From: an uncultured Candidatus Poseidoniales archaeon
Lineage (GTDB): Archaea > Thermoplasmatota > Poseidoniia > Poseidoniales > Thalassarchaeaceae
Reading direction: 5' to 3'
Assembly (NCBI GenBank): GCA_964342465.1
Contig: CAYFFQ010000002.1
Location: forward strand, 1-60,556
DNA: 60,556 nucleotides
Every line of letters starts with the position of its first letter. Within the stretch, counting starts at the first letter, position 1. This document shows positions 901 through 59,892 of this stretch, piece by piece. A program made the position numbers and the translations under genes. Under the pieces are notes generated by a model. That model searched no databases. It was not told the origin of the DNA and worked only from the letters and a program-made list of their open reading frames with translations.

Positions 901-983
901 TGCCGGTGCTCTTGGGATGAGAAACCAAATGCCGGTACTCTTGGGATGAGAAACCAATTGCGGGTGTTCTCGCGTTCAAGAAA
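901..983. repeat. 29-bp tandem repeat, 2 copies plus a degenerate third
   Basis: TGCCGGTGCTCTTGGGATGAGAAACCAAA at 901, near-identical copy at 930 (2 mismatches), decayed copy at 959; lies in a divergent intergenic region. Confidence 0.9.
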
Positions 984-12566: not shown

Positions 12567-12781
12567 GCAGAGGAGGTGTGAATCATCGAATATCAACCGC
12601 ATAATCGGGTGAGGCAGACATCAAGATGGACGACTTCAAACTGGGGATGATCGCCGAGGGCATTTGAATTAATTTTCTCGGCTTCCACCTCTTAAAGATG
12701 GTCGGCAGGGAATGAACAGATGATTACTCAGTCGTTCATCCATCCACATGATTGAAAACAGACGCTGAAGAGGGTTGTTCC

Positions 12782-15226
12782 ATGAAGCCGGCCATCGCCA
12801 TCCCGCTTGCCGCCCTCATTCTGACGGCGGGATGGTATGTCAGCGAAGACCCGACGAGAGTTGGGCCTTTTTTCGATTTTCTCAATGAATACACCAATCA
12901 GATTGAAAACACAGCACCTATGGTGCCACTGCAAGAAAATGAGAACTGGCTCGTCGTGGTCGTTGATTTCCTCGATGCCCCTGAGACAGGTTTCAGAAAC
13001 CCGCAGAAGGCGTTAACCCTGCTGGAAGGCACGGACGGAGCCGACGATTACATTTACCAAATGAGTGGTGGCACCTCAACACTCGATGTGACCGTTCTCT
13101 CAGAAGTATATCATGCACAGCAGCAGAGTGGTTATTGGGGTGCAGATGATGGCGATGTGAGAGATGTCGGAGAGGAAGGTTCGGATGGGCCTGCTGGTCT
13201 AGCGGCATCGGTTATCAAGAACTCATTGACTGGCATTGACCTCGCTCCTTTCGACCTCAATGATGATGGATGGGTGGACCGATTCCTCATTATTCACACC
13301 GCACCCGTGCAGGAAGATTCCGGTGGCTCCTCGGCGATATGGTCGCATTATGGGCCATTGACTGAGGTGGTGGAAGTAGGTGAGTACAAGTTCGACCACT
13401 ATACCATCGCCGGTTTCGATTCGGGTTTCGGGACGACTATCCATGAAATGCTGCACCAGATGGGCGCCATCGACCTCTACGATGTACACGGTCAAGGTAC
13501 GGGCGAAGATTGGAATGGGCTTGGCGATTGGGATGTCATGGCGAGTGGTAATTGGAATGGTGCCAACGGGCTCACTCCGGCGCTGCCCTCCCTCGCTACC
13601 ATGGACCTCATCGGCTTGAACAGGGCCACTGAAGTTTCCATGAACCTGCCTGGTGGCGAATCACAGGAGTATCGGCTATCACCTCTTTCAGATGGAGGAA
13701 ATGGGTTGTTCCTCCAAATATCACCGAGCGAGCGAGTATGGATGTCCTATCGCGCCGATACCGGTTTCGATAGAGAGTTGCCGGGTGCAGGCCTGCTGGT
13801 GACAATTCAGGACGATGCGGTGGGTGACAAGGAACAGAACCTCGTCAACACCGACCCAGACAACCCGTGGCTCTATGTGTTGGAGGCAGATGGTGACTCA
13901 GGCCTCCTCTCAGGCAATGATGAGGGTGACGAAGGTGATGTGTTCACCCCCGGCGATAAGTTTGGCGCAGAGGGTAGAATAATTGTTGACCACTATGGTA
14001 GGGTGGTGCCGTGGTCGGTAGAGGTTCTCACCACCACCGATGATGAGATGGTGATACAGGTCTTGAGTGAAGGAAAACCGCAAGTCGAGATACTCCCTCC
14101 CCATCATCCGATTCAATTACTGCCTCATGAGAATATGGTTGTCACTGTAAATTCCTCTATAGAGTGCGACCTTGTCGCCAATCTAACATCGTCTGACGGC
14201 CGCTCAGTGACCCTTGATGTCAGCCCCACTCTCACCGCCGGTATATTGGTTGAGAGGACCCTGTCATGGGATTCCAACGGCATTCCAACCACCTCTGGTA
14301 GACTTACCGGAGATTTTTCATGCGGTTCGTCGCCTCCAGTTGAGGTGAACATAGAATTCAACACCATCGGGATGCGGCTGAAGACCGAGCAGTTCGATGG
14401 AGATGTTGGATACAAAGGTACCAGTTATTCTGAAGTCCCTCTCCAGTTCGATGGTGCCGGTTCGCAAATGTGGGAAGTTAGGATAGAAGGTGCGTTATCG
14501 CGGATAGCGTCTACCGATGCGACCCAATCTCTTGGTGACGGCTCCATCGTCAACCTCACGATAGAGCCGAACGGACTACTCGTACCGGGTATGGTGGCCA
14601 AGGGGGAAGTCGTCCTCAGAGACCCTCAGGGGCTTGAGCAGTCTCTCGCAGTCACATTGACTGCGGAGCAGTTCGAACAAGGAGGGGAATTGGTCAGGTT
14701 TTTCTCAGATGCGGGGAATCTCATCATGGTCATGGCCGGACTTTTCGCATTTTCAGTTCTGTTGAGTATGACCTCCACAGGTAAGAGCGCGGCGCAGCGA
14801 ATCAGGGATAAAGGCCGAAAAAGAGCTACGCGAAAGGCGGCTTCTCGAGGGGGTAGAAGAGGTATCCAACCCTCTGATACACTTCAGTCACCATTCAATT
14901 CCGAGGAGCCCCGTCGCCCAGAATCCACTCCTGTCTCGCACGATGTCAGTCAGAATACAGTATATCATCGGATGGCGGAAGAGCGATTCGCTGAGGCGGA
15001 GAGGTTGGCGAGAAAACTCGGAATCACCGACACCACCGCCCCTCGGACAGCGGCGAGGCGTTACCCCGAGGGGACACCAGCAAGTCTGCCTGATGCAGAA
15101 ACAGCTATCACAGGCCCGAGTCGACCTACCACCCAAACTAAACCACCCTCTGGCAAGACCGCCCCTTCGCAAGCGAAAGTTAGTCACAATGTGGATGACC
15201 TCTACGGGTTCGATGACATCCTGTAG
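12782..15226 (+). CDS. M6 family (immune inhibitor A-like) metalloprotease, membrane anchored
   Basis: LVVVVDF, DLNDDGWVD..LIIH, IWSH, HEMLHQMG zinc motif, DWDVMASGNWNG; C-terminal TM then a disordered S/P/R/T tail. Confidence 0.88.
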   Translation: MKPAIAIPLAALILTAGWYVSEDPTRVGPFFDFLNEYTNQIENTAPMVPLQENENWLVVVVDFLDAPETGFRNPQKALTLLEGTDGADDYIYQMSGGTSTLDVTVLSEVYHAQQQSGYWGADDGDVRDVGEEGSDGPAGLAASVIKNSLTGIDLAPFDLNDDGWVDRFLIIHTAPVQEDSGGSSAIWSHYGPLTEVVEVGEYKFDHYTIAGFDSGFGTTIHEMLHQMGAIDLYDVHGQGTGEDWNGLGDWDVMASGNWNGANGLTPALPSLATMDLIGLNRATEVSMNLPGGESQEYRLSPLSDGGNGLFLQISPSERVWMSYRADTGFDRELPGAGLLVTIQDDAVGDKEQNLVNTDPDNPWLYVLEADGDSGLLSGNDEGDEGDVFTPGDKFGAEGRIIVDHYGRVVPWSVEVLTTTDDEMVIQVLSEGKPQVEILPPHHPIQLLPHENMVVTVNSSIECDLVANLTSSDGRSVTLDVSPTLTAGILVERTLSWDSNGIPTTSGRLTGDFSCGSSPPVEVNIEFNTIGMRLKTEQFDGDVGYKGTSYSEVPLQFDGAGSQMWEVRIEGALSRIASTDATQSLGDGSIVNLTIEPNGLLVPGMVAKGEVVLRDPQGLEQSLAVTLTAEQFEQGGELVRFFSDAGNLIMVMAGLFAFSVLLSMTSTGKSAAQRIRDKGRKRATRKAASRGGRRGIQPSDTLQSPFNSEEPRRPESTPVSHDVSQNTVYHRMAEERFAEAERLARKLGITDTTAPRTAARRYPEGTPASLPDAETAITGPSRPTTQTKPPSGKTAPSQAKVSHNVDDLYGFDDIL

Positions 15227-15301: not shown

Positions 15302-16009
15302 TCAGTGATGTGTGACCGCAGTAAGTAAATCTTCACTTTGGTTCGCCACATTGTTGACCTGCTGAGAAACTTCATGGTGGTCGATTTCGAGCGAAACCGC
15401 ATCCACACGCTCTCTGTCAACACATTGAATGGCGATTTCTGCGGATAGAGAGGTGTCCAACCACATCTGCCAATCCTCACGACCGAGCAACGCCGGCATG
15501 CGATGGTGAACCGACGAAAATTGTGGGCTGGCTGGAGATGTGATTATCGTGAAGGATTCTATGAGGTCTCCCTCACCACCCGACCATGAAGTCCATAGAC
15601 CGGCCAGCGCTAGTGGTTCCCCGTCCCTGTGATAGTGATAAAATGGAATCCTTTCTCCACCATCCTTCACCCATTCAAACCAGCCGTTGGCAGGGATGAT
15701 GCAACGTCTGCGGCTGGTCAGTGGGGCGAACATCCGCTTCTCCAGAATGCTCTCGACTCGGGCGTTGATGGGCCGAAATCTCGGCTTGTGACCACCCCAG
15801 GATGGATGCAGCCCCCATTTCATAAGTCGAATGTGGCGAGGCGCTTCTCCAATCACGCCGACGGGTGGGGCTGCGAGAATTACTGGGTTCCACGTAGATG
15901 GTGCGATATTGAATCGCGGTTGCGGGGCGATGGATTCGGGTAGGGGTTCACTGTCAAAGTGAATCGCCAGCATCTGCTGGTCTGCATGCAAGGCGAACCG
16001 TCCACACAT
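15302..16009 (-). CDS. SOS response-associated peptidase (SRAP/HMCES/YedK family)
   Basis: N-terminal MCGRF (catalytic Cys2), RFNIAPS, INARVES, RRCIIPANGWFEW, LALAGLW, VHHRMP; true start ATG 16009. Confidence 0.95.
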   Translation of the reverse strand: MCGRFALHADQQMLAIHFDSEPLPESIAPQPRFNIAPSTWNPVILAAPPVGVIGEAPRHIRLMKWGLHPSWGGHKPRFRPINARVESILEKRMFAPLTSRRRCIIPANGWFEWVKDGGERIPFYHYHRDGEPLALAGLWTSWSGGEGDLIESFTIITSPASPQFSSVHHRMPALLGREDWQMWLDTSLSAEIAIQCVDRERVDAVSLEIDHHEVSQQVNNVANQSEDLLTAVTHH

Positions 16010-16057
16010 CGTTTCAGGGATGGCCAACCTTCGGTTTGGTCTTTGCGCACACTCACG

Positions 16058-16193
16058 CCCTCACATTCAGTGTGCGGCCGGGAGAGATGTACATCGAGAA
16101 AGGCATCACCCGCACACCCTCACATACAGTGTGCGGTCGGGAGAGATGTACATCGAGAGAGACATCACCCGCACACCCTCACATACAGTGTGC
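16058..16193. repeat. 59-bp tandem repeat, about 2.3 copies
   Basis: CCCTCACA anchors at 16058, 16117, 16176; unit contains the palindrome GATGTACATC and a GCACAC...GTGTGC hairpin. Confidence 0.92.
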
Positions 16194-16211
16194 TTTCACT
16201 TTGAATGTGAG
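16193..16211 (+). promoter_or_regulatory. Candidate DNA-damage-response box upstream of the inactive RadA gene
   Basis: CTTTCACTTTGAATGTGAG; 17/19 identical to the box upstream of the polB2 unit. Confidence 0.5.
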
Positions 16212-16281
16212 TTTAGACCTCCCCCTCTGCGGCAGCAATTGACTTTGCTGACCTTTTGTGGCTACGAGTCGGTGAAATCAG

Positions 16282-17202
16282 ATGAAATCGTTGGACTGGG
16301 ATGATAGCGGTGATGGCGAAGTGGTGCCGACTCCGTGTGAGACCACTGCTTGCGCTGGACATGTGGATGGAGGATGCGGCTGTGGGCGATTCCAGCGAGA
16401 AACGGAGGACACATCAGGGAAGATAGGGTGGTCTGACAGACGCCTCGACGAATCTATGCCACCCCTCCGCCTCGGCACAATCAATTTGCTGCTCAATCAG
16501 GGGGAGCGGATGCGCGACTTGATGATGCGGGTCGCCGTAGTTGAATTGGCGAGCGGATTCCAAGTGCATTGGGTCGATGGAGCGGGTCGCATAGACCCTG
16601 GCAAAATGATGCCGCATCTCAGGAGAGTTGGCTGTGAACCTCGATGCGGGTTGTCCAGATTGAAGGTCAGCCGAGCCCACACTGCCTATCAGTTGGCGGG
16701 ACAGATAGAGAGATTGGTGGGGGCGGGTAGCGGGTTGCACGAACAGAATCGGTTATTCGTCATTGACAACCTGTCGGCGATGTTCTCGGACCCCCAACTC
16801 CTCACTTCAGAGAGTGTTTCTCTTCTCAATCGCGCCATGGCCAACTTGCGTACCTTAGCAGAGAGGGGGGTATGCATTCTCATCTCATCGTCACGGCCGA
16901 GGCAATCCACCACCCATTCGATTCTAGAACGGAGCATGACCAGCCGTAGTGATGTGGTGATCCACGCAAGAATGCAGCACGGCCGAGGTGAAGCGGTTGT
17001 GCAAATGGTATGTCAGGGCGAGCATCGCAGCGTGGTGACTTGGCTTCCGCCCCCTGCATCTCAATCACTTCTTTCTGATTTCAAACCGAATGAATCGAGA
17101 GTCAGCACCAGACTTCTCTCGCCCCTTCGGGATATTCCCTCCTCATCCCAACCGAATGGCGAGAGAATAGCCCAGACCGCCCGCCGCGCCAGCGGCTCAT
17201 AG
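16282..17202 (+). CDS. Inactivated RecA/RadA-fold protein (iRadA, ImuA-like)
   Basis: VHWVDGAGRID, LKVSRAHTAYQL, Walker B-like LFVIDNL; no GxxxxGK Walker A; C-terminal QSLLSDF. Confidence 0.75.
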   Translation: MKSLDWDDSGDGEVVPTPCETTACAGHVDGGCGCGRFQRETEDTSGKIGWSDRRLDESMPPLRLGTINLLLNQGERMRDLMMRVAVVELASGFQVHWVDGAGRIDPGKMMPHLRRVGCEPRCGLSRLKVSRAHTAYQLAGQIERLVGAGSGLHEQNRLFVIDNLSAMFSDPQLLTSESVSLLNRAMANLRTLAERGVCILISSSRPRQSTTHSILERSMTSRSDVVIHARMQHGRGEAVVQMVCQGEHRSVVTWLPPPASQSLLSDFKPNESRVSTRLLSPLRDIPSSSQPNGERIAQTARRASGS

Positions 17203-19496
17203 AATCCCACATCACCTTTCATCCCTGAAACTGAATCAGCACCTAACCTGATTTCGGCGGCCAATCTCACCCGTTCAGACAAATCGTTCGCCCTCCATGC
17301 GACAACCGCAAAATGGATTTTCCTGCCGGCAGGGGCCGCATGGCCAAGGGCGGCAGCTCTTGATAGAGCAGCAGTCGTAATCGTTGTCACCCTCTGGTCA
17401 CCTAATTCCTTGCGAATTCGTCTCCCTACGATAAGGTCTGATAGTGGTATCTCACCATTTGTGAGCGACTCCAACTGCTCATGCAAGTAATTGATAACTC
17501 TGAGTTGGTTGTCATGCGTCGTATCGAATTTCAGGGTCTCGAGTGCCTCTCTCTGCAATCGCTCAACCCACGGACAGGTGGAGTGCTGACGCAGTTCTAT
17601 CCCTCTGACTTTCCACCCCTCGCCACCGTGACCGAAGTACTTGGTCAGAGCGCCTACACCGCTGGTTCTGTTGGGGATGAAGCAGATCCATTCATATTCA
17701 TCTTCCAAGTCTATGGGAATGCCAATTTGATTCAACACCTTCTCCTTGATACTCTCTATAGACCGCAACCTGTCGCTACTTGACCTCGCTTGTGTATCGG
17801 TTAGCCACATTGAATCGACAATGGCATGCAGAGTCTCCCAACCCTCTTCAGTGGCAATCTCAATCGCCTGTAAAAGAATCTCACGCGCCCATGCGCAAAT
17901 CGCTTCATGGCATTCGATTCTGCCGAATCTTGCATTTCGGTAGCCGGTATAACCGAAACAGGTGACCAAGACCCATTTGAGGGCGTTCTGCCGCCCATCC
18001 CACACATCACCCTTTTCCACTCGGCGGCTTTTCAGTTGAGCCCGCCTTTCGATTATCGGGGCGACAACCCTGCCGAGAAACCCATGCCGCCTCGTACAGG
18101 TGTGTAGGTTCAGTTCCGGCACATCAAGAACCATCTCGACATCATTGCTGGGGTCCAATCTCCGAGCCACTTCCTCAGCCGCCTCATCGGTGAGGAGAGG
18201 TAGTTTTCCATCAATTGTCTCACCCATTGGGGGTGGCTGACAACAGAGGCAGTTGAGGGTCTCGGGACTGATGTTGCGGGTAGCGATGATGCTTGGGAAC
18301 AGCGAGGCAAAATCGAGTTCAACGACCCTTTCGTGGTATCCACTCACAGGGTCGAGGTAGAGGCCGCCGCGGTCAGCGGCCAGCAACTCCAATCCATCCT
18401 TGACATCCTCGGGGCGGTTCTTTTTCCAAGGCACTAGGACACCATCTTCCATCGCCAGCCGCATCTGCATGGCGCTAATCGCTGAGCCGGGTGAGAGGCG
18501 AGATATATCCTGTCCCGATAGACCGGCCATACGAGCCAGTTCAATAAGACCAGAAACTCCACCCTCTCGGACGATGAAGGAACCGGCCATGTCGATGTGG
18601 ATTCTACCCTCAAGTGCATGATAGGACTCTCTGCGCAACAACCTCCCGTATGACCATGTGGTTCTCCCCTTGGTGCGTGGAGTAAGTCCCTTCTCACTTC
18701 GACCCAACAGGAGTGGTTCATCGATTGATGCAGCGAGCCGCCTCAATGCCGGTAGGTCTACGCTGTCGCCGGCATCGGTGACTATCACATCGGGGTCCAG
18801 TGACCGAATGAGATGATGTAGTCGCGCCAACATCTCGCTTGGCGGCTCCCTCTTGATGGTGTACACTGGCCCATCTTCCTCTCTGCCCACGACCCCTCGC
18901 TCCTGAATTGTGATGGATGACAGTTCAGCAGCAGGTCTCCGCTGTCCATGTTGGTCGTGGCAATCACAGTGGAGATGAATGATTTTCAATGGGGGGAGGT
19001 CTAATGAGAGGTCCAGCCTCTCATCGATGGCGGTGATTACATTTCCTTCCACGCTGACCCTTCCAAATGGATGGACACCTCTATCCAAGAGGTGTCGCTG
19101 TGCCATTTTCTGGTCGACGGAATAGAGATGGTGGTGATGCCAATCGCCTCGCCCATCTATCGCTGCTGCAAGTTGGGCGAGGCGCGAAGGCCTGTCTGTT
19201 GACACGGATAAAACGGTGGTCGCCCTCTCCGCCCCAAGTTCGGTTGAATGTCTTTCAAATCGGCATCGTAGGTTTCCGAAAGCGGTATGCAGTTCCGGCT
19301 CTCCGAGCCAGCGTGCCAATTGTTCCAACCTCTCTATGTCGGCTGCAACATGGAGGGCGACTCTCCATCTCTCTCTCACGGAGATGGCCTTGCCACCTTC
19401 CAATTTGACCCAGACGACCATCTCGTCACCATCGAGGTGACAGTCCAGCACCCATCCCCTGTGGGCTGAATTTTCATTGCCATCGTCTGTCATCAC
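17061..19496 (-). CDS. polB2: Family B DNA polymerase, archaeal PolB2 type
   Basis: Motif A LDFASLFPSII..NISPET, motif B RQNALKWVLVTCFGYTGY, motif C HAIVDS (vs YGDTDS), KVRGIELR; degenerate exonuclease motifs. Confidence 0.9.
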   Translation of the reverse strand: MMTDDGNENSAHRGWVLDCHLDGDEMVVWVKLEGGKAISVRERWRVALHVAADIERLEQLARWLGEPELHTAFGNLRCRFERHSTELGAERATTVLSVSTDRPSRLAQLAAAIDGRGDWHHHHLYSVDQKMAQRHLLDRGVHPFGRVSVEGNVITAIDERLDLSLDLPPLKIIHLHCDCHDQHGQRRPAAELSSITIQERGVVGREEDGPVYTIKREPPSEMLARLHHLIRSLDPDVIVTDAGDSVDLPALRRLAASIDEPLLLGRSEKGLTPRTKGRTTWSYGRLLRRESYHALEGRIHIDMAGSFIVREGGVSGLIELARMAGLSGQDISRLSPGSAISAMQMRLAMEDGVLVPWKKNRPEDVKDGLELLAADRGGLYLDPVSGYHERVVELDFASLFPSIIATRNISPETLNCLCCQPPPMGETIDGKLPLLTDEAAEEVARRLDPSNDVEMVLDVPELNLHTCTRRHGFLGRVVAPIIERRAQLKSRRVEKGDVWDGRQNALKWVLVTCFGYTGYRNARFGRIECHEAICAWAREILLQAIEIATEEGWETLHAIVDSMWLTDTQARSSSDRLRSIESIKEKVLNQIGIPIDLEDEYEWICFIPNRTSGVGALTKYFGHGGEGWKVRGIELRQHSTCPWVERLQREALETLKFDTTHDNQLRVINYLHEQLESLTNGEIPLSDLIVGRRIRKELGDQRVTTITTAALSRAAALGHAAPAGRKIHFAVVAWRANDLSERVRLAAEIRLGADSVSGMKGDVGFYEPLARRAVWAILSPFGWDEEGISRRGERSLVLTLDSFGLKSERSD

Positions 19497-19622
19497 AATC
19501 CTCCACTAACGGGTTTGTCAACCTCCATGTATGCGACATCACCACAACAGACATCTCTTTCTCTCCCAAGGGGTCGCCACCCCGCTACAACAGTCATTCG
19601 GCAAATTGGCGAGTGAAATGGC

Positions 19623-19791
19623 GGTTCAGGATTCCAATTCATCAATTTCTCACTCAATCGCAGTTTCGGTTGAATGGTCGGCATGGTAGTCGTGGTTCAG
19701 GATTCCAATTCCTCGATTCTCACTCAATCGCTGTTTCGGTTGAATCTTCGGCATGGTAGTCGTGGTTCAGGATTCCAACTCCTCGATTCTC
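19623..19791. repeat. 70/71-bp tandem repeat (about 2.4 copies) containing the 3' end of the upstream gene
   Basis: GGTTCAGGATTCCAA anchors at 19623, 19694, 19764; on the minus strand each copy encodes (R/I)-x-E-L-E-S-stop. Confidence 0.92.
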
Positions 19792-20021
19792 CGCTCAAGC
19801 CGAGCCATCTTGCAATAGGCATCGACCATGATGGCGAGAAACATCGGTTCCATCGGTTCTGATGTCGGCATCATCCCACCTGCTGAAGCGCGCTCCCGCA
19901 CCGATTTGGCCATCTTGTCCAAAGCGAGTTTGTCCTCCGTCCGCAGAGCCCTCCTGAAGTTGTTCCAAGCGACCATTCTCTCCTCTATTCTCATGCGCCA
20001 TGTCGATACTGTGCGACCCAT
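19767..20021 (-). CDS. Small alpha-helical PolB2-associated protein (arCOG07300-like)
   Basis: MGRT..TWR, FRRALRTEDK pattern, helical, directly upstream of polB2; family recalled from memory. Confidence 0.7.
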   Translation of the reverse strand: MGRTVSTWRMRIEERMVAWNNFRRALRTEDKLALDKMAKSVRERASAGGMMPTSEPMEPMFLAIMVDAYCKMARLERRIEELES

Positions 20022-20071
20022 GCACTTCTCCTTGAGGACGAGGTAGTAGACGGTATCTCACGCACCCGCAC

Positions 20072-20090
20072 CTCACCTGCAAAGTGAAAG
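20072..20090 (-). promoter_or_regulatory. Candidate DNA-damage-response box upstream of the small gene-polB2 unit
   Basis: Minus strand CTTTCACTTTGCAGGTGAG; a second CACTTTCAC lies 20 bp upstream (20104-20112). Confidence 0.5.
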
Positions 20091-20231
20091 TGTTCTATCG
20101 GTGGTGAAAGTGGTTGTATGCAGGCAGTAACAACACCACTAGAGAGTCAGTAATTCTATGAAAATGAAAGGGCGAAACTTTCGCCTATTTGTTGGCCGAG
20201 ACATCATCTATCGTCAAAGTTCACATTCCTG

Positions 20232-21266
20232 TCAATGTCTGAAACCCGACCAACGGGATGAAGCGGGTGGCCTCGTTATCGCCAGAAAACGCCAACTGTC
20301 TTCAATTCTCAATCCACAAAGCCAAGTCTTGTGAACGCCGTTGGCGAGCCGAGCGGCGAGACAGGCCTGACCCCAATCCCTAGGTGCCAACCAGTATGGT
20401 TGCAGTAACCATTCAGCGTGCCTTTCACCGATTTCTGATTCGTACAGCCGCCATCTAGTGCCATACTTGAATCCAGACCGAGGCAGCAACCCACGCGCCA
20501 GCACCGCCTTCAAAAGAGCCACGCTCTCCGCATGACCACTAGATTCACAGAGGAGCGCAACCTCGTCATCTTCCAACCAAGCACCTTCAGGTAGAGGTGA
20601 AGCGAGTTGGACAGGCAATTTCTGGCTACCGATGTAAAGTGCGCCACAGCCGGTCTTCACCAATTCTTCGTTGAGGTCATTCATGGCATCGAAATCGATT
20701 GGGGGATGAATGCCTCTCGGCTCTTCGGGACTTACTCTATAGGTAGTTACGCCGAACTCTTCGTCAACGATGAGCACCTCGGCGATGCGGCCAAGAGAAT
20801 TCACTTCACAAGCCCAGTGAAAGAGTCTGGAATAGTCAATCGGTTCAAACTCCCTGACCCAGATGACCTCTGATTCGGGAAGGTCGCTCTTCACCTTGGC
20901 TCCCCTCCCCCAGCGCAGCGCCCAACTCCCCTCAGAAACAATTACATTGAGTGCGACATGTTCTATGTTTTCTCGCAGGATGACTTTTTCACCCGGTACT
21001 CTCATCGCTTCAAGTGCTGCGGCCTGATGGAGAAGGGTGTCGTCCTCTCGCAACATCTCTTCTATCCAACCTTCGCCAGTTATCATGTGTCGATGACGGA
21101 CACAGAAGATGACTTCAGAGGGGTGAAGGAGCAAACTGTTTTCCACGCCCATCCTGCCGATGGCGGATTTATCGAAGAGTCTCTGAGCGGCCCCTCCATG
21201 CAGTACCCAACCATTCTCCTCGAGAGAAGGTGGGCCGATGGAGCGTGCTGGAGAGGTCATGCTCAT
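20232..21266 (-). CDS. endA: tRNA-splicing endonuclease, two-unit (alpha2-like) form
   Basis: C-terminal RSGFKYGTRWRLY...HAEWL...RLANGVHK with Tyr/His/Lys triad; N-terminal unit with EVLIVDEEFGVTTY. Confidence 0.85.
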   Translation of the reverse strand: MSMTSPARSIGPPSLEENGWVLHGGAAQRLFDKSAIGRMGVENSLLLHPSEVIFCVRHRHMITGEGWIEEMLREDDTLLHQAAALEAMRVPGEKVILRENIEHVALNVIVSEGSWALRWGRGAKVKSDLPESEVIWVREFEPIDYSRLFHWACEVNSLGRIAEVLIVDEEFGVTTYRVSPEEPRGIHPPIDFDAMNDLNEELVKTGCGALYIGSQKLPVQLASPLPEGAWLEDDEVALLCESSGHAESVALLKAVLARGLLPRSGFKYGTRWRLYESEIGERHAEWLLQPYWLAPRDWGQACLAARLANGVHKTWLCGLRIEDSWRFLAITRPPASSRWSGFRH

Positions 21267-21398: not shown

Positions 21399-22190
21399 TT
21401 GGTGATTGTGATGGCGTCCAAGGGTAGATTGGGTGAATACACCGTTGAACAACGGGTCCTCATTCACCTATCAGAACACCGTCTCGCTCGTTCACGGTGG
21501 GAAGGCAAGACCGAACAGACCCAATCGGGAATCGCTGCTGCAGTTGGAATTGCGAGGAAGCACCTGCCGCGCACCCTGAAGGCGCTGATGGCGCAGGAAC
21601 TCGTTGAAATGGAGACGAGGCATGTTCCGGGCGCCCGTCAAAGATGTCGGATTTACTTCCTGACGCCAGCCGGTGTGGCTGCGGCGGCGCCGATGCATGA
21701 TGAACTCGGTGAAAGAGAGATAGTAGAAGCTGGTGTGACAACGACTGTAGCAGCCCTCGCAAAACACGATATCCCCTACCTCGAGATTCTCGCTCATCTC
21801 AATTCTGATGGCGTCTTTGACTCTGAAATGCATGCGACTGACATAGAGGATGACGACCCTGGTGCTGACCTCTATCGCAAGGTCCTCCATCGCGCTTGGG
21901 GGGATGGGAAAATCACCGAGGATGAGAGAGGAATGCTGGACGACATCTCCATCCATCTCGGACTCGAGCCCGACATTGTAGAGAGCATCGAGAGTGAAGT
22001 CAACTCTGAGAGAGTCGATTCTCCCTCACAGCAGACGGAGACATATCTCAGTGTCCTCGCCATCGCTTGGCAAGACGGATACATCTCCACTGATGAGCAG
22101 GCGATGTTGGACACATTGGCAAAATCTCTCGGCATATCTCCCGAAGACGCACGTGAGGTGCAAGAGAAGTGGATATCCCAAAATGGCTGA
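21399..22190 (+). CDS. Winged-helix protein with two TerB-like helical domains
   Basis: TQSGIAAAVGIARKHLPRTLKAL...RIYFLTPAG wHTH; repeats AWGDGKITEDERGML..LGL and AWQDGYISTDEQAML..LGI. Confidence 0.7.
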   Translation: MVIVMASKGRLGEYTVEQRVLIHLSEHRLARSRWEGKTEQTQSGIAAAVGIARKHLPRTLKALMAQELVEMETRHVPGARQRCRIYFLTPAGVAAAAPMHDELGEREIVEAGVTTTVAALAKHDIPYLEILAHLNSDGVFDSEMHATDIEDDDPGADLYRKVLHRAWGDGKITEDERGMLDDISIHLGLEPDIVESIESEVNSERVDSPSQQTETYLSVLAIAWQDGYISTDEQAMLDTLAKSLGISPEDAREVQEKWISQNG

Positions 22191-25599: not shown

Positions 25600-25650
25600 T
25601 CCCATGGTCAAAGGCGAACAGCGGTGCATCATAAACCCGCCCACACCACG

Positions 25651-25876
25651 ATGACAGGTCGCTGTCGGTTATGGCGAGACGACTATGTGACAATTCACGC
25701 ACACCTCAATGACAGGTCGCTGCCAGACATGGCTTCTCGACTCTCGGCCAATTCACGCACATCCCGATGGCAGTTCGCTGTCGGTTATGGCGAGACGACT
25801 ATGTGACAATTCACGCACACCTCAATGACAGGTCGCTGCCAGACATGGCTTCTCGACTCTCGGCCAATTCACGCAC
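25651..25876. repeat. 58-bp x4 higher-order (ABAB) tandem repeat
   Basis: Unit starts at 25651, 25709, 25767, 25825; conserved ATGACAGGTCGCTG and CAATTCACGCAC flank alternating 26-nt cores. Confidence 0.93.
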
Positions 25877-59591: not shown

Positions 59592-59603
59592 ATGTCCTCA
59601 TTA

Positions 59604-59825
59604 TCGCCAACTGCGATTCTGGCCAGCGAAGATTTGGGCCGAGAGAGATTTTCGCCAACTGCGATTCTGGCCAGCGAAGATTTGGGCCGAGAGAGATTAT
59701 CGCCAACTTCGATTCTGGCCAGCGAAGATTTGGGAGAGAAAGATTTGGGCCGAGAGAGATTTTCGCCAACTGCGATTCTTGCCAGCGAAGATTTGGGAGA
59801 GAATGATTGCCCCCAACTTCGGTTC
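59604..59825. repeat. 48-bp tandem repeat, about 4.3 copies
   Basis: TCGCCAAC anchors at 59604, 59652, 59700, 59763 (15-bp internal duplication in unit 3), decayed copy near 59810. Confidence 0.93.
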
Positions 59826-59892
59826 CAACAAGTGAGTAATTTGGGAATCCAAGTGTATTGCCACTGTTATCTCCACAAACCATCTAGAAGAA

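Follow-up and report, generated by a model that had tools for sequence, protein, structure and literature searches.

The stretch of DNA analysed here (the window) is 60,556 nucleotides long and comes from contig CAYFFQ010000002.1 of an uncultured Candidatus Poseidoniales archaeon, a member of the marine group II archaea in the family Thalassarchaeaceae. Four adjacent genes, lying on both strands at positions 15302-20021 (open reading frame (ORF) coordinates), encode a SRAP protein, an inactivated RadA (iRadA), a family B DNA polymerase of the PolB2 type and the small protein PPB2. We regard it as likely that the locus is a PolB2 mutasome module laid out in three units, in which SRAP would be an optional, co-regulated accessory and not a core subunit, because the units share a promoter box and SRAP is often absent.

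Marine group II archaea are abundant in the sunlit surface ocean and uncultured, so that their tolerance of UV and abasic damage can be read only from genomes. Some of them carry the full PolB2 mutasome together with SRAP as a cassette that is gained and lost, and the locus offers several handles on it: a conserved promoter box, an SSB-like gene predicted to be co-regulated, and a one-way dependency of SRAP on PolB2. The operon of PolB2, arCOG07300 and inactive RadA was described by Makarova et al. 2014 (PMC4104785), and the name PolB2 mutasome, together with a model of the complex of PolB2, iRadA and a PPB2 trimer, comes from Timinskas et al. 2025 (PMC11791011). The latter authors also found SRAP and DUF72 to be enriched near polB2, in the case of SRAP in both archaea and bacteria. 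The initial annotation of the window, which took the link between SRAP and polB2 to be undescribed, was therefore mistaken on this point. Since both the mutasome and the SRAP enrichment have been published, the locus, though a clear case, is an ordinary example of a system already known, and its value lies in confirmation and detail, not in discovery.

Organization of the locus

The four genes and the overlap between two of them are placed as follows.

15302 to 16009, minus strand: SRAP (YedK/HMCES family) gene, 235 amino acids from the ATG that gives Met-Cys2
16282 to 17202, plus strand: iRadA (inactivated RadA), 306 amino acids, the last 47 codons overlapping polB2
17061 to 19496, minus strand: PolB2 (Dpo2-type family B polymerase), 811 amino acids
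19767 to 20021, minus strand: PPB2 (arCOG07300), 84 amino acids, immediately upstream of polB2
17061 to 17202, both strands: antisense overlap of the iRadA and polB2 3′ ends, 142 nt

The contiguity of the four genes, reported in the initial annotation, is confirmed. A view of them as one operon does not hold, as both strands are used and the layout gives three transcription units: PPB2-polB2, iRadA convergent with polB2, and SRAP divergent from iRadA across a spacer of 272 nt.

The polymerase and its partners

The polymerase matched Pfam PF00136 (E 3.6e-21) and NCBIfam NF004418 (E 2.4e-120), while its Pfam exonuclease domain scored below the cut-off. The replicative PolB models of NCBIfam scored some 100 orders of magnitude worse than the best ones; NCBIfam NF004416, searched as a control, failed to separate PolB2 from other PolB. 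When we assigned the motifs by alignment to Deep Vent PolB, motif A (LDFASLFPS) was found to be kept. KWVLVTCFGYTGY aligned to motif B with NS replaced by TC, and HAIVDS (residues 557-562) aligned to YIDTDG of motif C, changing DTD to IVD. In the exonuclease motifs, D/E of ExoI is replaced by L/C and N of ExoII by A. The signatures of PolB2 that had been read from the sequence beforehand (HAIVDS, a motif B without NS and eroded exonuclease motifs) are thus borne out by the Deep Vent comparison. The IVD version of motif C matches entries in the published PolB2 table (PMC11791011), and the D(K/R) loop motif takes the form ADRGG, without variation, in nine PolB2 sequences from Poseidoniales. The lost exonuclease residues, together with what is published on homologues, suggest that the enzyme is proofreading-dead.

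The PolB2 protein has two further peculiarities. Between motifs A and B (18045-18251, residues 416-484), the residues C416, C418, C419, H465 and C467 are invariant in Poseidoniales and surround a variable insertion; this cluster may form a metal-binding element. The C-terminus of the protein in the window carries a degenerate VLTLDSFG that resembles a PCNA-interacting protein (PIP) box. In sister genera PolB2 ends in a canonical PIP box (QTTLEAWV, QSTLEAWV or QTCLEAWI) and iRadA also has a SLLEF-type motif, so that there both PolB2 and iRadA may bind the clamp, a situation that is rare according to the published survey (PMC11791011). In-frame TGA codons that seemed to lie within polB2 of some relatives were an artefact of alignments that overran the natural stop; the proteins end in QTTLEAWV.

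The 84 amino acid protein encoded upstream of polB2, which had been noticed as a small helical protein, is PPB2/arCOG07300. Its predicted structure (pLDDT 92.5) consists of three helices at residues 8-24, 28-48 and 57-83, and its N-terminus, MGRTVSTWR, forms the MGRT arm with Arg3 and Arg9; a small three-helix protein with an MGRT arm is what defines PPB2/arCOG07300 (PMC11791011). Of 17 aligned homologues, 15 conserve the MGRTVSTWR sequence and two are N-terminally truncated. A PPB2 profile matched the middle gene of iRadA-PPB2-PolB2 operons elsewhere, in Methanomassiliicoccales, Methanoperedens, Halobacteriota and Hadarchaeota, with E values of 1e-17 to 1e-26. A Foldseek search of the model against the PDB gave nothing significant. 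The precomputed Pfam label of this protein is PF26485.

The plus-strand ORF is a RadA core without a P-loop, that is, an iRadA. Searched alone, it matched no Pfam or other family, and we found eight homologues of it in marine group II archaea. A profile built from the nine marine group II family members matched RadA/Rad51 chains of the PDB (E 5e-7), and seven of the nine matched Pfam Rad51. The AlphaFold2 model (pLDDT 72) matched the ATPase cores of RadA and Dmc1 (Foldseek E 3e-12; TM score at most 0.76, target-normalised); the model shows disorder over residues 1-43 and predicts no helical N-domain. The P-loop position (residues 69-76) reads LLLNQGER, and the Walker A pattern GxxxxGK[ST] is absent throughout the protein and from all nine homologues, as the initial annotation had stated for the protein encoded in the window.

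A PIP-like QSLLSDF at residues 261-267 of iRadA, 39 residues before its C-terminus, is a putative PCNA-binding motif; in same-genus relatives a QASLSDFW lies nine residues before the end. The tail of the protein (IPSSSQPNGERIAQTARRASGS) is antisense to a conserved C-terminal segment of PolB2 and recurs in several genera. It is probably a by-product of the overlap with polB2, because in same-genus relatives an in-frame stop 28 codons earlier truncates it.

The SRAP protein matched Pfam PF02586 (E 4.6e-62) and aligned end to end with Escherichia coli YedK structures (E 6e-30). Its motifs MCGRF, INARVE, GWFEW and HHRMP fall on Cys2, Asn, Glu and His of YedK, so the retention of Cys2, Glu and His claimed beforehand is upheld.

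On the model of published homologues, PolB2, a PPB2 trimer and one iRadA would form a heteropentamer able to extend mismatched or lesion-opposed primer ends. The complex would be tethered to PCNA through the PIP-like motifs, QSLLSDF in iRadA and the degenerate one at the PolB2 C-terminus; among published members, PCNA-binding motifs are found mostly in iRadA and are present in many but not all of them (PMC11791011). SRAP would act through its N-terminal Cys, cross-linking abasic sites in single-stranded DNA at stalled forks.

A role of PolB2, PPB2 and iRadA in replication restart or origin regulation, instead of translesion synthesis, was raised by Makarova et al. 2014 (PMC4104785). It would fit the resemblance of iRadA to recombination mediators and the fact that an SSB-like gene shares the promoter box described below. 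However, published work on Saccharolobus islandicus Dpo2 showed that it is required for targeted mutagenesis and extends mismatched ends. In addition, no orc1/cdc6 gene adjoins the cassette and the box resembles a damage-response element. We therefore consider this role very improbable.

Comparison with known PolB2 loci

Operons of Poseidoniales belong to group 3b of the PolB2 mutasomes, with the order PPB2-PolB2-iRadA (PMC11791011). Compared with this group, which we take here together with S. islandicus Dpo2 (PMC4104785, PMC11791011), the window has the same three proteins in the same gene order. They share the IVD motif C, a dead exonuclease (as predicted), the ADRGG form of the D(K/R) loop, the MGRT arm with Arg3 and Arg9, a P-loop-less RadA core without N-terminal domain, and a PIP-like motif in iRadA. 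In contrast to the group, iRadA in the window lies on the opposite strand, is convergent with polB2 with the 142-nt overlap, and there are two box-bearing promoters. The Y-family polymerase that is the usual neighbour in group 3b was not present at the locus.

Neighbourhoods that combine SRAP and polB2 belong mostly to group 1a (haloarchaea, Thermoplasmata and bacteria; Table S1 of PMC11791011), and the locus in the window is a rare case from group 3b. Like the published neighbours, it has an intact SRAP, with Cys2, Glu and His, within one gene of the PolB2 module; unlike them, its SRAP gene is divergent from iRadA with a shared intergenic region and is not upstream and co-directional.

The initial annotation had proposed an archaeal analogue of the bacterial SRAP-imuABC cassette built on a B-family enzyme. 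The part of this proposal that stands is a mutasome of PolB2, iRadA and a small partner; SRAP as a member of the operon does not stand, given the layout and its absence from many related genomes (see below). Set against the SRAP-imuA-imuB-dnaE2 cassette (Aravind 2013, PMC3765255), the likeness goes no further than analogy: in both cases a RecA-fold pseudo-ATPase and an error-prone polymerase are encoded next to a sensor of abasic sites, and the genes are probably damage-controlled. The components are unrelated, the polymerase being of the B-family and not the C-family, with RadA in place of ImuA and PPB2 in place of ImuB. Furthermore, the locus has no LexA box, and SRAP is by layout not co-transcribed, here or in any of the nine genomes with this arrangement.

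Distribution and synteny in Poseidoniales

We compared 201 genomes of the order Poseidoniales, setting the family of the window against its sister family Poseidoniaceae. PolB2 was found in 93 genomes and SRAP in 69. Both were present in 68 genomes, PolB2 only in 25, SRAP only in one and neither in 107 (Fisher 4e-31), meaning that a single one of the 69 SRAP-bearing genomes lacks PolB2. In the sister family the corresponding counts were 59, 9, 1 and 30. The PPB2>PolB2> <iRadA order, with iRadA convergent, was seen in every Poseidoniales locus examined, while in other orders iRadA-PPB2-PolB2 are co-directional. The 3′-end overlap of iRadA and polB2 is kept across the family of the window and is absent from the sister family.

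Within the window's family, PolB2 occurs in 25 genomes and SRAP in nine. All nine, from genera g1, g6, g7 and g8, have the layout PPB2>PolB2> <iRadA SRAP>, and SRAP was found nowhere in the family but beside iRadA. The adjacency is thus not confined to the source genome, being shared by nine genomes of four genera. The synteny of SRAP, iRadA and polB2 expected from the window alone is seen in these nine of the 25 PolB2-bearing family genomes; in the sister family SRAP and polB2 lie far apart, yet co-occur strongly.

In one genome of the window's family the cassette lacks SRAP and has the same flanking genes. Ten family genomes, including four that share the genus of the window, lack the cassette altogether, and in them the tRNA-splicing endonuclease gene endA directly adjoins the M6 peptidase gene, so that the cassette comes and goes as a unit at one site between these two genes. 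At this site two cassette-less genomes of the same genus (L035 and L036) have a different gene of about 1.2 kb that apparently encodes a secreted protein. In another cassette-less genome (L040, G015), GAACACTTTCACTTCC followed by a C-rich tract stands after endA, where the PPB2 promoter would be; it looks like the remnant of a lost cassette and would favour loss.

Such a pattern raises the question of whether the four genes are the cargo of a mobile island recently transferred into the genome. The sharp presence or absence between the same flanks, even within one genus, would suit an island, as would the different gene at the site in same-genus genomes and the frequent horizontal transfer of PolB2 among archaea (PMC11791011). 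However, the cassette directly abuts endA and the M6 peptidase gene and leaves no room for an integrase, the GC content is flat across the region, and the genera of the family agree in insertion site and gene order. The box-like remnant points to loss, and PolB2 identities follow taxonomy, with 68-69% within the genus, about 50% within the family and about 45% within the order. Of all the explanations considered, recent transfer on a mobile island appears to us the least probable.

In the sister family, PolB2-less genomes of one genus have SRAP cleanly missing between pheT and the next gene, and in a pheT tree of that genus no lineage keeps SRAP once PolB2 has been lost. A one-way dependency of SRAP on PolB2 is supported by these data, albeit with few independent events.

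A promoter box shared by the units

Two promoter regions of the cassette carry a common sequence.

20080 to 20113, minus strand: PPB2-polB2 promoter box, with the proximal CACTTTCACTTTG at 20080-20092 and the distal CCACTTTCACC at 20103-20113
16192 to 16211, plus strand: shared box GCTTTCACTTTGAATGTGAG in the SRAP/iRadA intergenic region, oriented towards iRadA

The sequence CACTTTCACTTT lies about 60 nt before the PPB2 ATG, with the second element, CCACTTTCACC, 10 nt further upstream. CACTTTCACTTT consists of two tandem ANTTTC-type hexamers, ACTTTC then ACTTTG, in the sense orientation upstream of the core promoter. The SRAP/iRadA spacer holds GCTTTCACTTTG, and a 19-nt box is common to this site and the PPB2 promoter. 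The module needs two promoters because iRadA lies on the strand opposite to polB2, and both carry the same box. In the SRAP-bearing relatives the distance from the box is about 65 nt to the start of SRAP and about 80 nt to that of iRadA.

Among 43 species of Poseidoniales, 32 have ANTTTCA at 57-72 nt before the start codon of PPB2, as against 27 of 343 control upstream regions (p 2e-21); in the antisense orientation it occurred at one of the 43 PPB2 promoters. Before the iRadA-PPB2-PolB2 operons of other orders, ANTTTC was present in 11 of 21 cases compared with 23 of 221 controls, and there a C-rich tract and a TATA box follow it.

Exact copies of the 12-mer box number five in the 2.2-Mb genome, and four of these are 42-60 nt upstream of an ORF. 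One exact CACTTTCACTTT, in the region C23:18179-18652, lies 52 nt upstream of a gene (C23:18242-18652) for a 136 amino acid SSB-like OB-fold protein (Sulfolobus SSB, E 9e-9). The box is retained upstream of orthologues of this gene in nine genomes of the family, from five genera; some of these genomes lack PolB2. A second half-site is found further upstream of the SSB-like gene, and a gene for an N6-DNA methylase downstream. Further copies of the box, at C2:197805, C29:7476 and C23:11243, are 42-125 nt upstream of small ORFs: one of 96 amino acids, followed by DUF3860 and UbiA genes, one for a beta-propeller-like protein of 189 amino acids and one of 88 amino acids. We did not find informative family matches for the 96, 88 and 189 amino acid products.

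In Sulfolobus, ANTTTC is the element bound by Orc1-2 in damage promoters (PMC6061795). As in the Sulfolobales element, ACTTTC is in the sense orientation upstream of the core promoter of the polB2 unit, and dpo2 is damage-induced in Sulfolobus; unlike that element, the box here has two tandem hexamers and lies 57-72 nt, not 23-55 nt, upstream of the start codon. Our literature search returned no paper describing an ANTTTC-type box outside Sulfolobales. The genome has two Orc1/Cdc6 genes, and nothing ties either of them to the box. One of them, on contig C15, seemed to carry a box-like TTTTACTTTG and a C-rich tract upstream and was tried as a member of the regulon; we dropped it, as 197 of the 201 genomes possess this paralogue whether or not they have PolB2, and the motif is not kept upstream of 20 of its orthologues.

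The shared box suggests a small damage regulon. Judging from the comparative data, the units of the cassette and the SSB-like gene would be switched on together via CACTTTCACTTT by one regulator, plausibly after DNA damage. A wider proposal, which we advance tentatively and which is less likely to be right than wrong, is that marine group II archaea possess an SOS-like tandem-ANTTTC regulon. It would comprise PPB2-polB2, iRadA and the SSB-like gene, with SRAP added where it lies beside iRadA. In euryarchaea the box would then correspond to the Orc1-2 element of Sulfolobus, and SRAP would be a PolB2-dependent accessory of the mutasome, retained only with PolB2 whether linked to it or not. If true, this would imply a functional hand-off between the shielding of abasic sites and translesion extension by a B-family polymerase.

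Is SRAP an accessory of the mutasome?

Several observations weigh against SRAP as a co-regulated accessory. It forms a separate, divergent transcription unit, and 16 of the 25 PolB2-bearing genomes of the window's family are without it. The box in the spacer faces iRadA, not SRAP, and the 59-nt repeats in the window set it at a distance of 183 nt from the start of SRAP. The SRAP gene of the sister family is 46-49 kb from polB2; it follows a pheT-like gene after 10-15 nt and has no box. The pattern in the pheT tree is structured by clades, such that about three losses of SRAP and four of PolB2 suffice to explain it. The near-universal Orc1/Cdc6 paralogue, too, has no conserved box upstream.

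These observations could be accommodated if SRAP were merely a neighbour in a variable spot, an abasic-site protein that works independently and is linked to the mutasome neither in function nor in regulation. The rarity of the arrangement would agree with this: SRAP was within 6 kb of polB2 at four of 80 loci from named species, and the published figures are 134 of 1823 polB2 neighbourhoods (7%), and three of 95 in group 3b (PMC11791011). A few events would likewise account for the phyletic pattern of SRAP. On the other hand, SRAP occurs without PolB2 in that single genome among 69, even though the genes are unlinked in many of them. In the window's family it always stands beside iRadA, with the box at a short distance from its start in relatives, and its enrichment in polB2 neighbourhoods has been published for archaea and bacteria (PMC11791011). 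We thus find the chance-neighbour explanation unlikely, though it is the strongest of the alternatives, and retain SRAP as an optional accessory whose co-regulation with the module is predicted.

Flanking genes and tandem repeats

The flanks of the cassette and the tandem repeats within it are located as follows.

12752 to 15226, plus strand: M6-family metallopeptidase gene
20232 to 21266, minus strand: tRNA-splicing endonuclease (EndA-like) gene, kept with or without the cassette
16054 to 16193: 59-nt tandem repeat, 2.4 copies (TRF, Tandem Repeats Finder), between the SRAP start and the shared box
19623 to 19791: 70-nt tandem repeat, 2.4 copies, duplicating the PPB2 3′ end (last 24 nt) and the spacer

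With the 70-nt repeat, the spacer between PPB2 and polB2 reaches 270 nt; in relatives, which do not have the repeat, it is short. The 59-nt repeat is specific to the source genome, its same-genus relatives being without it. Intergenic tandem repeats occur at five places in the window (901-965, 16054-16193, 19623-19791, 25642-25876 and 59600-59846), with units of 29-116 nt in 2-4 copies at 72-96% identity. We considered the repeats of the cassette as specific regulatory elements and rejected the idea, given the relatives that lack them and the similar arrays at five sites of the window; they are treated here as a genome-wide habit.

Beyond endA and divergent from it, a gene at 21399-22190 encodes a protein of 263 amino acids whose N-terminal region is winged-helix/MarR-like and which has two TerB/DjlA-like repeats at the C-terminus. 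It is kept in relatives both with and without the cassette.

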